Source: a virus
Lineage: Duplodnaviria > Heunggongvirae > Uroviricota > Caudoviricetes
Virus record (IMG/VR): IMGVR_UViG_2547132269_000006
Direction: 5' to 3' (one strand)
Length of the DNA stretch: 4,427 nucleotides
Positions 1 through 4,427 of the stretch are shown here, one piece after another (position 1 is the first letter of the stretch; each line of letters opens with the position of its first letter). Position numbers and translations under genes: made by a program. A model generated the notes under the pieces. It did not search any database and was not told the origin of the DNA. It was given only the letters and a program-made list of their open reading frames with translations.

Positions 1-184
1 TCGGGCTGGCTACTTAACCCCTGACCACTGTCTGGTAACTCGAAGTATTGCCCTGCGTTCTGTGGGGCGGGGTGGGTTTATGGATACAATTCACAAATTA
101 AAATTTAACTGGTCAACATGTTTATTATTAAATTTGTAATTGCGAGCTGTTGCATCAGTCCCAAAATGGGACTACTATACAGTT

Positions 185-489: not shown

Positions 490-849
490 ATGAACATCAA
501 ACCTATTCGTACAGAGCAAGATTATGAAGCCGCGTTGCGTGCTGTTGAACCCATGTTCGACAATGAGCCCGAAATTGACACGCCTGAGGGGGATTTTTTT
601 GAGGTGATGTGTTTGCTAATAGAGGAATATGAAAAAAAACATTATCCCATTGAGCCACCATCCCCAATTGAAGCTATAAGATTTCGCATGGAACAGCAGG
701 GGCTGACTGTGAAAGATTTGGAACCCGCAATTGGGAAAAAAAATCGGGTTTATGAGGTGTTGAATGGTACCAGAAGCCTTACGTTACCAATGATTCGCCG
801 TCTTCATAATCAATTTGGTATCCCCCTGGAAAGCCTGGTTGGATTATAA
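490..849 (+). CDS. higA: HigA-family antitoxin, XRE-type HTH DNA-binding protein, 119 aa
   Basis: GGAG at 481-484 sits 5 nt upstream of ATG 490. The C-terminal LTVKDLEPAIGKKNRVYEVLNGTRSLTLPMIRRLHNQFGIP resembles the HTH region of E. coli HigA (YgjM) from memory. It is tightly coupled to the upstream toxin gene. Confidence 0.85.
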   Translation: MNIKPIRTEQDYEAALRAVEPMFDNEPEIDTPEGDFFEVMCLLIEEYEKKHYPIEPPSPIEAIRFRMEQQGLTVKDLEPAIGKKNRVYEVLNGTRSLTLPMIRRLHNQFGIPLESLVGL

Positions 850-1288: not shown

Positions 1289-1426
1289 CACCACCCCTCG
1301 TAAACTAGTTCCGCGATCCTACAGAAAAAATTGATAAGTGGCATTACAAATAGAAGTTGAAATTTAAATTTAAATTTAAATTTAAATTTGTAATTATCGG
1401 TGTCATCGTAAAGTTCGGAGGGAAAC
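1289..1426. promoter_or_regulatory. Divergent promoter/operator region of the lysogeny switch (PRM-like leftward, PR-like rightward)
   Basis: A 138-bp AT-rich intergenic region lies between the divergent repressor and Cro-like genes. It contains inverted octamers ATTACAAA (1343-1350) / TTTGTAAT (1387-1394), the (AAATTT)5 tract, and a candidate rightward extended -10 TGtAATTAT (1389-1397) with a -35-like TTTAAA about 17 bp upstream. The promoter hexamer assignments are inference only. Confidence 0.6.
1360..1389. repeat. Perfect tandem hexamer repeat (AAATTT)x5, self-complementary
   Basis: Read directly: five uninterrupted AAATTT units from 1360 to 1389, bounded by G on both sides. Confidence 0.95.
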
Positions 1427-1687
1427 ATGCAAAAAAGTACTCAAGTGAAAATCCTGTCAATAATGAGCCAATCAGAATTAGGGCGTCGTCTTGGTAAAAC
1501 ACCGCAAACCATAAGTGGGTGGTTTAAAAAACGAGTGCCAGCGGAGGAGGTTATACCAGCATGTGAGGCGCTTGACTGGGGAGTAACTCCGCATGAATTG
1601 CGCCCTGATAAATACCCTAATCCAACCGATGGTTTACCTGTTGAGTATCAGGCTAACGCACAAGCAGCGGCGGGAGTTGATTCATGA
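1427..1687 (+). CDS. ydaS: Cro-like HTH regulator, YdaS family, 86 aa
   Basis: GGAGGG sits 6 nt upstream of ATG 1427. The HTH (SQSELGRRLGKTPQTISGW) is followed by a ...TPHELRPDKYP motif that I associate with YdaS/Cro-like proteins. It is the first gene of the rightward operon, opposite the repressor, and its stop overlaps the next start (ATGA at 1684-1687). The symbol is assigned by family resemblance and synteny with Rac racR-ydaS-ydaT. Confidence 0.75.
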   Translation: MQKSTQVKILSIMSQSELGRRLGKTPQTISGWFKKRVPAEEVIPACEALDWGVTPHELRPDKYPNPTDGLPVEYQANAQAAAGVDS

Positions 1688-2121
1688 AAATCAAGCATGA
1701 GCACATCCGCATGGCGATGAATGCGTGGCTGCTTTATCCGAGGGTAGGGCGCAAAAAAATCGCTGATGATATAGCGACAGCATATTTTGAGCTTGAAATG
1801 ACTTATCCACCAATGCATGACACCTCTACGACAGAGGGTATTGGATTGAACATACAAAATATTTTTCGCTGGCTTGAAAAGGATACGCCTGATGCTGTTG
1901 AAAAAATTCAGGCACTAATTCCAGCTATCCTGACTGTTCTTCCGCGTGAACTGCGTTATCACCTCAGTATTTTTGACACTGTTGAGCGCCGTGCATTACT
2001 GGCGGCCCAGGAAGCGTTGAGCACGGCAATTGATGCGCATGATGATGCAGTCCAGGCAGTTTACCGGAAAGCGTATTTCAGCGACGGCGGGTCATCCGGC
2101 GAGTCTGTTGTGGTGCATTGA
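1684..2121 (+). CDS. ydaT: CII-like regulator, YdaT family, 145 aa
   Basis: The N-terminus MKIKHEHI... and the internal QNIFRWL...LIPAIL..LPRE motif match my recollection of YdaT. The start is translationally coupled to the Cro-like gene (ATGA overlap), with GGGAG 7 nt upstream. Confidence 0.8.
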   Translation: MKIKHEHIRMAMNAWLLYPRVGRKKIADDIATAYFELEMTYPPMHDTSTTEGIGLNIQNIFRWLEKDTPDAVEKIQALIPAILTVLPRELRYHLSIFDTVERRALLAAQEALSTAIDAHDDAVQAVYRKAYFSDGGSSGESVVVH

Positions 2122-2210: not shown

Positions 2211-3221
2211 ATGGCCGCATTACCATACATGCAACTGTACATAGCTGATTACCTGGCTGACACCATGCATTTGTCCGCAGAGGAGCACGGTGCGTATTTG
2301 TTGCTGATGTTCAATTACTGGCAAACAGGGAAACCAATACCTAAAAACAGGCTGGCAAAAATTTCCCGTCTGACTAACGAGCGATGGGCTGATGTGGAAC
2401 CATCCTTGCGGGAGTTTTTTTGCGATAACGGCGATGAATGGGTGCATCTTCGGATTGAGGAAGATCTGGCATCAGTCAGGGAAAAATTGACCAAAAAATC
2501 AGCCGCCGGAAAAGCATCTGTTCAGGCCAGAAGAAGCAGAAAGGAAGCATATGTTCAAACAAAACAAGAGAGAGATTTAACAGGTGTTCAAACAAATGTT
2601 GGTGTTGTGTTTGAACATGACGCAAACACAAAAGCAACTAATAAAGATACAGATCTAAAAGAATTAAACCCCACACATAACGTGCGTGAACGCGAGAGTA
2701 TTCCGACCAGTGAGTCGCATGGTGCGCCGTTGCAGACAGCCGAACCTGAATACCTGGACGGCCTGAGCGAACCGATCGGGAAATTTTCGATGACTACTGT
2801 CTGGCAGCCGTCGCCGGATTTTCGACAACGGGCAGCAGTGTGGGGTATGGCTCTGCCTGAGCCGGAATTTACACCTGCTGAGCTTGCCGCATTCCGGGAT
2901 TACTGGATGGCGGAGGGGAAGGTTTTCACGCAGGTTCAGTGGGAGCAGAAATTTGCCCGCCACGTGCAGCACGTCAGGGCACAGGTAAAACCAGTCAGCA
3001 AGGGGGTAAGCCATGCAGCATCAGGTGGCACGGCATCACGGGCAGTTCAGGAAATCCGGGCAGCACGCGAACAGTGGGAACGTGAAAACGGATTTATCAG
3101 CAACGGAAACGGCCTGGAAGCTGTGGGAGCTTATGGGGGAGGTGTATTCGAACCGCTGGACTCAGAAGAACGGGGCCGCACCTTCGAAGCTCTGGATTGC
3201 CCAGATTGGTGCGATGACTGA
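2211..3221 (+). CDS. Phage replication initiator (O-like): DUF1376-type N-terminal domain plus DnaT-like C-terminal domain, 336 aa
   Basis: ATG 2211 has GAGG 5 nt upstream. The N-terminus (YMQLYIADYLADTMHLSAEEHGAYLLLMFNYW) fits the DUF1376/YdaU pattern. The C-terminal GKFSMTTVWQPSPDFRQRAAVWGMALPEPEFTPAELAAFRDYWMAEGKVFTQVQWEQKFARHVQ closely parallels the E. coli DnaT C-terminal domain as I recall it. Codon usage in the last 70 codons is good (all Leu CTG, all Glu GAA). The TTG at 2154 is an unsupported extension. Confidence 0.8.
   Translation: MAALPYMQLYIADYLADTMHLSAEEHGAYLLLMFNYWQTGKPIPKNRLAKISRLTNERWADVEPSLREFFCDNGDEWVHLRIEEDLASVREKLTKKSAAGKASVQARRSRKEAYVQTKQERDLTGVQTNVGVVFEHDANTKATNKDTDLKELNPTHNVRERESIPTSESHGAPLQTAEPEYLDGLSEPIGKFSMTTVWQPSPDFRQRAAVWGMALPEPEFTPAELAAFRDYWMAEGKVFTQVQWEQKFARHVQHVRAQVKPVSKGVSHAASGGTASRAVQEIRAAREQWERENGFISNGNGLEAVGAYGGGVFEPLDSEERGRTFEALDCPDWCDD
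2550..2635. repeat. Iteron-like repeats inside the O-like gene linker, a candidate replication origin
   Basis: TGTTCAAACAAA occurs exactly at 2552-2563 and 2585-2596, an inverted copy TGTTTGAACA lies at 2608-2617, and a related CAAACACAAAA at 2623-2633. An AT-rich stretch follows (2637-2669). The position between the two initiator domains mirrors ori-lambda inside gene O. Confidence 0.4.
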
Positions 3222-3675
3222 ACAGCAAATCCGTCTGGTCTGCCGTCAGTGCATGGACCGCTGCCGGGCGGGTGAAACGTGGCCCCCGGACCTGGCTGAG
3301 TTTGTTGCGCTGATTTCGGAGAGTGGGGCAAATCCATTTGGTCTTACGGTGGATGCCGTGATGGAAGAGTACCGGCGCTGGCGCAATGAATCCTGGCGAT
3401 ACGACGGGAGTGATAAATACCCGTGGCCACAGCCTGTGCTGTACCACATCTGCCTCGAAATGCGTACCAGAGGGATTGAGCGCCAGATGACGCAGGGTGA
3501 GTTAAAACGACTTGCGGAACGGCAACTGACGAAATGGGCAAAGCATGTTGGTAACGGGATGAGTGTTCCGCCAGTGCGACGACAACTGGAAGGGGCGAAA
3601 CACCCGCAAGGGCCAACGCCAATTGAACGGCTGAAACAGGAATACGAACGCCGGAAGGCAGCTGGTTTTCTTTGA
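3214..3675 (+). CDS. Lambda-P-like replication protein (DnaB helicase loader family), 153 aa
   Basis: The sequence resembles the C-terminal two thirds of lambda P as I recall it (PPDLAEFVA vs PSPGQFVAW; a shared YPW motif; TQGELKRLAERQL vs TDAELRRKAADEL). ATG 3214 overlaps the O-like stop (ATGACTGA), which suggests translational coupling. An upstream in-frame ATG at 3013 with a GGGGG SD exists, but that frame has poor codon usage within the overlap. Confidence 0.7.
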   Translation: MTEQQIRLVCRQCMDRCRAGETWPPDLAEFVALISESGANPFGLTVDAVMEEYRRWRNESWRYDGSDKYPWPQPVLYHICLEMRTRGIERQMTQGELKRLAERQLTKWAKHVGNGMSVPPVRRQLEGAKHPQGPTPIERLKQEYERRKAAGFL

Positions 3676-3708: not shown

Positions 3709-4227
3709 ATGGAAACCGTATTTGACGCACTGAAAGCACTGAAAAGAGCCTCTTCACAGGTAGTGGCGGCCCGCCTTGGAATCAGCCGTGAAGATGCGGT
3801 CAACGAACTGTGGAAACTGAAGCGCCGCGGTGAAGCGGATAACAAGGGGTCGATGTGGTGGCTGATTCAGGCTGGTGAAAGTGAACCGGTGTCACCGGTA
3901 CCGAAAGTGACAGCGCAAATGCTGACTGAGGCGATTGAACAACATGGCCCACAAACGGCGGATGAGCTGGCACTGATGTTCGGGATTACCTCCCGCCGGG
4001 CGAATTCATCGCTGGCCATGGCAATCAGCAAAGGGCGTCTGATTCGCGTGAATCAGGGCGGTAAATTTCGTTACTGCATACCGGGCGCTGATTTACCGGC
4101 AGAGCCGGAAGCTGCATCCGTAGCGGAAACCGATGGTAAAGCCTTTCCTCAGCCAGCAGGTGTTGCGTTACCAGTTCGGGAAGCAGAAACGCTACGGCCT
4201 TCGATATGGACATCCGATAAATGCTGA
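3709..4227 (+). CDS. Hypothetical phage protein with two tandem winged-helix-like modules, 172 aa
   Basis: GGAGG sits 8 nt upstream of ATG 3709; the TTG at 3691 in the ORF track is less likely. Two repeats of a helix-turn-helix plus wing pattern are visible ([37 protein letters not shown]...MWWL and [43 protein letters not shown]). This may correspond to a DUF1627-type protein, but I cannot confirm the family. Confidence 0.7.
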
Positions 4228-4240
4228 TGAGCGCCACGTC

Positions 4241-4354
4241 ATGATACCTAAAGAAAATGGCTGCTGGATTTATCTGGCTGATTTAGAGCACGTACTACGT
4301 GTTGCTGGTATTCGCATCAAAGGAGAGGAGCATGGAAATCAAACCAGAAGATGA
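4241..4354 (+). CDS. Possible small protein, 37 aa
   Basis: ATG 4241 lies 13 nt after the upstream stop. It is the only non-overlapping part of the 4133..4354 ORF. There is no convincing SD, and the 3' end overlaps the next start by 23 nt. Confidence 0.2.
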   Translation: MIPKENGCWIYLADLEHVLRVAGIRIKGEEHGNQTRR

Positions 4355-4427
4355 GTTAAGTAATATTGTTTTATTTCCGGTAAAAGAGGATGACCCACGT
4401 AATCAGGTTAATTTTCTTTATGAGCCA
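4332..4427 (+). CDS. Hypothetical protein, 5' partial view (gene runs off the window end)
   Basis: A strong SD (AGGAGAGGAG) lies immediately upstream of ATG 4332. The frame is open to the window end (MEIKPEDELSNIVLFPVKEDDPRNQVNFLYEP...). No family recognised. Confidence 0.45.
   Translation, partial: MEIKPEDELSNIVLFPVKEDDPRNQVNFLYEP

Follow-up and report, generated by a model that had tools for sequence, protein, structure and literature searches.

The 4,427-bp stretch of DNA analysed here (hereafter referred to as the window) carries the control region of a prophage, in which the gene for a short repressor and the gene for a YdaS/Cro-like protein diverge from a common 138-bp gap. To the left of the repressor gene lie an OL-like region and the higBA pair, and the YdaS/Cro-like gene is followed by genes encoding the CII-like protein YdaT, a DUF1376/DnaT protein, a lambda-P-like protein and a DUF1627 protein (Table 1). 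All of the coding sequences in the window are intact. Within the 138-bp gap lies a perfect hexanucleotide repeat, (AAATTT)5, at positions 1360–1389, which overlaps predicted operator and promoter elements. The original prediction was that this slippage-prone tract could act as a reversible modulator of lysogeny stability.

Table 1 Coordinates of the genes, predicted operators and predicted promoter elements of the window
Feature	Position	Strand	Sequence	Remarks
OL-like region	88–138			Two operator-like sites, 92–108 and 122–138, 30 bp apart, upstream of higB
Predicted PL −35	111–116	leftward	TTGACC	Reverse complement of 111–116
Predicted PL −10	88–93	leftward		Reverse complement of 88–93
higB	185–487	+
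higA	490–849	+
Repressor	896–1288	−		130 residues; Pfam HTH_3/HTH_26 at residues 8–53 only; RefSeq annotation of identical protein
PRM-like candidate −10	1316–1321	−	TAGGAT	Overlaps OR3
OR3, predicted operator	1320–1336		TACAGAAAAAATTGATA	Overlaps predicted PRM −10
PRM-like candidate weak −35	1339–1344	−	ATGCCA	17-bp spacer; abuts OR2; sequence reading
OR2, predicted operator	1345–1361		TACAAATAGAAGTTGAA	Best consensus match of the sites; overlaps ancestral PR −35, abuts predicted PRM −35
PR −35 hexamer, ancestral	1357–1362	+	TTGAAA	17 bp to −10 in relatives, 29 bp in window
Substitute −35-like hexamer	1369–1374	+	TTTAAA	Repeat unit at 17-bp distance; without the conserved G
OR1, predicted operator	1376–1392		TTAAATTTAAATTTGTA	3 mismatches to consensus; equivalent at fixed offset in 8 relatives; right half is consensus ATTTGTA, weak left half consists of repeat units; overlaps PR spacer and −10
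PR extended −10	1389–1397	+	TG-T-AATTAT
YdaS/Cro-like	1427–1687	+		First gene from PR; Pfam PF15943, phrog_35
YdaT (CII-like)	1684–2121	+		Pfam PF06254; phrog_163 'CII-like transcriptional activator'
DUF1376/DnaT	2211–3221	+
Lambda-P-like	3214–3675	+
DUF1627	3709–4227	+

Repressor type and prophage context

Pfam found no S24 peptidase (autocleavage) domain in the repressor. The protein is 32% identical to the CI regions of Gifsy-1 and Gifsy-2 and 39.6% identical to the CI of SPN3UB (tblastn), and it aligns with DicA over its full length at 22% identity (E = 2e-7). On this homology we assign it to the short, non-cleavable DicA/Gifsy type, whose hallmarks it shares: a length of ~130–135 residues with an N-terminal HTH_3 domain and no S24 domain, and homology to GfoR/GtgR or DicA. 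Repressors of the DicA/Gifsy GfoR/GtgR class are short, have an N-terminal HTH and no Ala-Gly cleavage domain, and are inactivated by antirepressors (PMC10448788, PMC3121763); no antirepressor gene was identified within the 4.4-kb window. Relatives of the window carry the dicB, ydfC and DUF1391 genes leftward, as does Qin, whereas the dicA–dicC intergenic sequence of Qin is unrelated to that of the window. The exact repressor protein occurs in about 11,800 assembly blocks and is found in Shiga-toxin-producing strains of serogroups O26, O103, O111 and O45. It is among the commonest E. coli prophage repressors, and its switch appears not to have been dissected before. A megablast search with positions 850–1700 returned no match among 50,697 phage records, and tblastn detected only distant CI proteins.

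Several features of the window lie outside the control region. With OL/PL on one side and the repressor gene on the other, the higBA genes form an inserted module. The likely higB promoter, TTGCAT (150–155) and TACTAT (173–178) separated by 17 bp, ends 6 bp before the ATG at 185; its −10 pattern TAnnAT is conserved in relatives, and the transcript would be leaderless or nearly so. Further downstream, TGTTCAAACA is directly repeated at 2552–2561 and 2585–2594 and inverted at 2608–2617, with an A/T-rich stretch after it (window 2551–2618). The repeats and this stretch fall in the linker that joins the DUF1376 domain to the DnaT domain and, by analogy with lambda, in which ori is located inside gene O, may be origin iterons. 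Compared with the O26 prophage, the window has a 3-bp insertion (ATG) at 2200–2202, just upstream of the DUF1376/DnaT start at 2211, and 14 substitutions, eight of them in the first 476 bp and six in the other 3.7 kb; this clustering in 1–476 suggests that a recombination boundary lies close to OL/higB. At the other end, the match to the O26-type prophage stops at 4190, a mosaic junction that falls within the DUF1627 gene, at its 3′ end (window 4190–4427). The DUF1627 protein has 172 residues here and 241 in a relative, and the exact protein was found only on the contig of the window.

A perfect hexamer tract in the divergent control region

The tract proved to be as described at the outset, five hexamers without interruption (Tandem Repeats Finder: period 6, 5.0 copies, 100% matches), and lies far beyond chance. 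With up to three mismatches allowed, the 18-mer (AAATTT)3 has five overlapping matches in the window, all of them within 1354–1395, against a chance expectation of 0.02 from 200 dinucleotide-preserving shuffles, none of which reached five matches. Its assignment to the divergent repressor/Cro control region also holds, and it overlaps predicted operator sequence as well. The tract is 100% A+T, contains TpA steps and is self-complementary; as single-stranded DNA, the segment 1340–1400 folds into a hairpin of −9.3 kcal/mol (z = −3.7).

Short tandem repeats are prone to mis-assembly, and the window is a short contig built from short-read data, so that the tract might in principle be an artefact of assembly or sequencing laid over a true three-unit allele. 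We regard this as extremely improbable. The window is the entire contig logan:ERR200287_19, which is also present in NCBI and is recorded with identical sequence in five samples; its recurrence in five samples and in both Logan and NCBI makes an assembly error unlikely. Moreover, a 30-bp tract fits inside single reads, and in k-mer assemblers k-mers with at least four units cannot come from reads holding only three.

Three predicted operators at fixed spacing

We aligned the repressor-to-cro regions of relatives from E. coli, Salmonella, Sodalis and Arsenophonus and of two further contigs, and the alignment revealed conserved islands within otherwise diverged sequence. When 17-mers were scored against the operator model TACAAAT-N3-ATTTGTA, three 17-bp sites were found in each of eight diverse relatives, at offsets that are always +25 and +19. 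The 48 half-sites pooled from these loci give the counts T46 A28 C37 A44 A35 A37 T35, and hence the consensus TACAAAT. In the window alone, six sites with four mismatches or fewer were found against 2.4 expected, a number reached by 5 of 300 shuffles, which adds modest support. In distant relatives OR3 is a near-perfect 17-bp palindrome, exemplified by TACAAAGTTTCTTTGTA in the relative L057. The OR3–OR2 offset is 25 bp in all relatives, and the OR2–OR1 offset is 19 bp in the relatives (Salmonella, Sodalis and three of the five Arsenophonus-group relatives keep it) versus 31 bp in the window.

The locus shows two features of a lambdoid tripartite operator: divergent repressor and cro-like genes that flank a short control region, and three related pseudo-palindromic sites at conserved spacing. 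The HTH recognition region of the repressor, VKPQSVQGWL, is invariant down to 52% identity, so the homologues are expected to bind the same DNA. Two other candidates for the operator, an 8-2-8 palindrome (AAATTTAA-NN-TTAAATTT) and a 14-bp element (TTAAATTTGTAATT), were dropped for the 17-bp model, the only one with three sites at fixed offsets in every relative. The earlier suggestion that the tract is an array of repressor half-sites holds only weakly, in that the repeat unit carries the degenerate left half of OR1 (TTAAATT, with 4 of 7 matches to TACAAAT).

Predicted promoters of the switch

In the three-unit relative L001, a promoter scan identified TTGAAA-17-AATTAT with an upstream TG as a rightward promoter, PR, which overlaps OR1 and OR2. 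The scan also called the equivalent PR, with a TAATAT/AATATT −10, in the distant relative L057. It did not call PR in the window, and it returned no promoter for the Sodalis relative, in which the hexamers score 8/12, just under the threshold. The TTG of the −35 element and the sequence TGTAAT of the extended −10 (window 1389–1394) are invariant in the eight relatives, down to 52% repressor identity, and no indel separates them. The tract does not lie between the −35 elements of the two divergent promoters, as had been thought. In the relatives its first three bases are the final AAA of the PR −35 (TTG/AAA); from there it occupies the 17-bp spacer as far as the TG of the extended −10 (TGnAATTAT). 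Besides these −35 bases and the entire spacer, the 18-bp element takes in the place where OR2 and OR1 adjoin, including the degenerate left half of OR1. In the window, the hexamer TTTAAA that a repeat unit places at 17 bp from the −10 scores 8/12, under the scan threshold, and may serve as the −35. The promoter and operator functions assigned here are predictions from consensus and conservation.

For the leftward direction, TAGGAT, TAGTAT or TAGAAT is found at the position of the candidate −10 in the E. coli, Salmonella and Sodalis relatives. Combined with the candidate −35 abutting OR2, this hexamer makes a plausible promoter for the repressor gene, similar in type to lambda PRM, although it did not pass the scan owing to its weak −35. 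Another leftward candidate for the repressor promoter, ATGACA-16-TAAATT with its −10 inside the tract, was ranked lower, as its −35 is unconserved in relatives.

Tract length across relatives

Over positions 477–2199, the 12 additional bases of the tract are all that distinguishes the window from the O26-type prophage. When 321 bp spanning the tract were used as a query, 148 of 5,426 complete E. coli genomes gave a match; among the matches listed, the matching segments are 309 bp (or 306 bp) long, and identity peaks at 96.3%, exactly what a 12-bp gap alone produces, as expected for three-unit subjects. Alleles with four, five or six units would have scored higher and are therefore absent among the 148 matching genomes. 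A synthetic two-unit query reached at best 98.1% in the same genomes, corresponding to a 6-bp gap, so two-unit alleles are likewise absent among them.

The same length was found elsewhere. A flank-anchored pattern search that permitted 6–36 bp between the flanks retrieved 17 IMG/VR contigs and two metagenome contigs, with 18 bp in each, and all 23 IMG/VR loci retrieved by anchoring on the repressor, which are partly the same contigs as the 17 matched by pattern, have 18 bp as well. The repressor-to-cro gap measures 126 bp in 10 of 10 contigs with an identical repressor (a small fraction of the occurrences of this protein, which is indexed in 11,830 assembly blocks) versus 138 bp in the window; it measures 124–129 bp in Salmonella, Sodalis and the two further homologue contigs, and 115 bp in Arsenophonus. 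Among all loci compared, with repressors 52–100% identical, the additional 12 bp is confined to the contig of the window, and no four-unit intermediate was seen among the E. coli, IMG/VR, metagenome and identical-repressor loci. The pattern TTACAAATAGAAGTTG-N6-36-GTAATTATCG had no match in a set of one genome per species, in which the E. coli representative evidently lacks the prophage. A literature search for AAATTTAAATTT returned unrelated primer or construct sequences only.

The middle unit of the relatives differs between alleles, being AAATTT, AAAATT, AAGTTT or AAAGTT, while the length is unchanged, and about half of the alleles examined contain an interrupted repeat that retains 18 bp. 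Such interrupted alleles at constant length indicate that selection acts on the length and the operator/promoter content of the element, not on a slippery repeat. The variable sites are positions 9–10 of the 18-bp element (equivalent to window 1368–1369); they correspond to positions 5–6 of the weak left half of OR1, and their variation may tune operator strength. From the sequences compared, we take the ancestral element to be a fixed-length 18-bp A/T block of the form AAATTT-AAnnTT-AAATTT, which is a perfect (AAATTT)3 in the O26-type lineage, and the tract of the window to be a +12-bp (+2-unit) derivative of it. An invariant copy number among homologues had been named beforehand as the outcome that would count against a reversible modulator, and the copy number is essentially invariant, at 18 bp, with only the window differing. 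Of the original prediction, the idea that slippage alters promoter and operator spacing also stands, at +12 bp in this case; routine reversible modulation is not supported, the length being fixed in the relatives.

Changes at the leftward promoter and in endosymbionts

The leftward early promoter PL (TTGACC-17-TAAATT) was called by the scan in the three-unit relative L001 and was not called in the window. Here the contig of the window carries a substitution, T92C, that is unique among all loci examined. On the minus strand it changes the PL −10 from TAAATT to TGAATT, with loss of the second-position A, and it also alters the first base of a conserved TACAAAT half-site.

Indels at the same spot as the 12-bp insertion were found among the five endosymbiont relatives recovered. 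In Phlomobacter (L069) and in one Arsenophonus copy (L072), the homologous A/T tract (~511–527, minus strand) has undergone a 7-bp deletion, from TTGAAATTTAAAATTAAATCTGTA to TTGAAATTAAATCTGTA, which leaves a PR spacer of 10 bp and an OR2–OR1 offset of 12 bp. The two deletions are independent events, and together with the insertion they mark the tract as a hot spot for slippage in either direction. Since these indels are rare, restricted to single lineages, not made of whole hexamer units and located in decaying genomes, they bear the signature of mutation and not of programmed phase variation.

Proposed effect of the insertion

We consider it probable that the tract is the PR/operator core of a lambdoid-type switch that has been enlarged by slippage, by 12 bp and in one lineage, and that the enlargement damps early lytic transcription and is not a programmed switch. 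In such a switch, the repressor, and probably the Cro-like YdaS too, would block RNA polymerase at PR by binding OR1 and OR2, while the promoter of the repressor gene itself would be flanked at its −35 by OR2 and overlapped at its −10 by OR3, in a lambda-like manner. The insertion displaces the true −35 to 29 bp from the −10, so that the surrogate TTTAAA alone remains, and increases the OR2–OR1 distance from about 1.8 to about 2.95 helical turns. OR2 would then no longer overlap the −35 in use, and repression should persist because OR1 still covers the spacer and the −10. The most likely outcome would be that cro, ydaT and the replication genes are transcribed less, with repression at OR1 kept. 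That one lineage has changes in both predicted early promoters and yet keeps its genes intact points to a damping of early lytic and toxic gene expression in a resident prophage. The direction of the effect could be different, given that an extended −10 works without a good −35 and that the displaced A/T repeats could act as an UP element, in which case PR might not be weakened. With the operators about 2.95 turns apart, their same-face alignment may survive, which could be the reason that the observed allele is +12 rather than +6.

The last point is also the starting point of the most serious alternative, in which the additional 12 bp, by adding about one turn of the helix, leave OR1 and OR2 facing the same side and yield a retuned, adaptive immunity variant instead of damage. 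The 31-bp spacing is near an integral number of turns and near the 30 bp that separate the OL sites, and could thus denote a functional, re-spaced switch rather than a crippled one. The +6 allele, which would place the operators on opposite faces, was never seen among the loci compared; the extended −10 and OR1 are untouched, TTTAAA stands at exactly 17 bp, and the genes are intact. However, every non-degenerate relative keeps both the 19-bp spacing and the TTG of the −35, and the allele is confined to a single lineage; moreover, the PL −10 has lost its key A through T92C, a change easier to reconcile with damping than with retuning. We therefore judge an adaptive re-spacing to be unlikely, although it deserves more weight than the remaining readings.

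A contingency locus, in which reversible gain and loss of AAATTT units retunes the spacing and hence the stability of lysogeny, appears highly unlikely. The window does have the anatomy of known phase-variable promoters, a perfect and uninterrupted tandem repeat in the spacer of the predicted PR; it shows that a change in unit number can arise and persist (five samples), indels occur at the same spot in two endosymbiont copies, and five perfect units slip more readily than three. In phase-variable loci such as Haemophilus influenzae hifA/hifB, where the unit number of a (TA)n repeat in the divergent promoter spacer changes the spacer length, repeat-number polymorphism is frequent within and between strains. 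By contrast, the length here is fixed except in one lineage and many alleles are not perfect repeats: no length variant, and thus no repeat-number polymorphism among close relatives, was detected in the 148 E. coli genomes, the 17 IMG/VR contigs (23 repressor-homology loci), the two metagenome contigs and the 10 identical-repressor contigs. The interruption of about half of the examined alleles at unchanged length, the conservation of spacing down to 52% repressor identity, the 7-bp endosymbiont deletions, which are not whole units, and the missing four-unit intermediate argue in the same direction. A narrower version, in which two-unit jumps within the O26-type lineage toggle between a three-unit inducible state and a five-unit damped or locked state, with face alignment kept and the five-unit allele revertible, seems to us just as improbable. 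Equally little probability attaches to a structural or nucleoid-protein element (an H-NS, Fis or IHF site, a bent segment or a cruciform) whose expansion would silence the switch region more strongly. H-NS typically targets A/T-rich promoters that were acquired horizontally, and the base composition, the TpA steps, the perfect self-complementarity and the hairpin potential of the tract would suit such an element. Yet its period of 6 bp does not keep phase with the helical repeat of 10.5 bp, and classic bending by phased A-tracts, which requires a helical phase of ~10–11 bp, was rejected for this reason; what is conserved is not A/T content alone but specific bases (TTG, TGTAAT and the TACAAAT half-sites) at exact spacing, and the palindromy and hairpin potential are accounted for by operator symmetry.

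Discussion

The predicted organization of the region resembles that of lambda OR. Both have divergent repressor and cro genes and three 17-bp pseudo-palindromic sites, of which OR1 and OR2 overlap PR, OR2 also lies directly beside the −35 of the repressor promoter and OR3 extends over its −10, and both have a second operator set at the leftward early promoter, all of these features being predicted in the window. In contrast to lambda, the repressor here has 130 residues and no cleavage domain, the operator consensus is TACAAAT-N3-ATTTGTA with spacings of 25 and 19 bp, and only two clear OL sites were found. The PaaR2/YdaS/YdaT region of CP-933P from E. coli O157:H7 likewise has a repressor gene divergent from ydaS–ydaT and a toxin–antitoxin module in the immunity region. 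In CP-933P, multiple operators overlapping PRM and PR and a PL/OL analogue have been demonstrated experimentally, with 18-bp palindromes (half-site GTTTAGTAA) in a 97-bp intergenic region (PMC8630535); the repressor and operator sequences differ from those of the window. Its toxin–antitoxin genes belong to the repressor operon (PMC8630535), whereas higBA in the window is a separate unit on the opposite strand.

The allele is unusual but its kind is ordinary: it is the lambdoid-type PR/OR of a DicA/Gifsy-class repressor with a rare 12-bp slippage insertion. The comparison yields a testable map, with three predicted operators and promoters, of an E. coli prophage immunity type that is very widespread. 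The microsatellite represents no new regulatory principle; it is a natural promoter/operator-spacing mutant, ready-made for testing spacing rules. More broadly, the low-complexity PR spacer is a recurrent site of indels, +12 bp in the window and −7 bp twice in endosymbionts, and such indels offer one simple route to the silencing of resident prophages.
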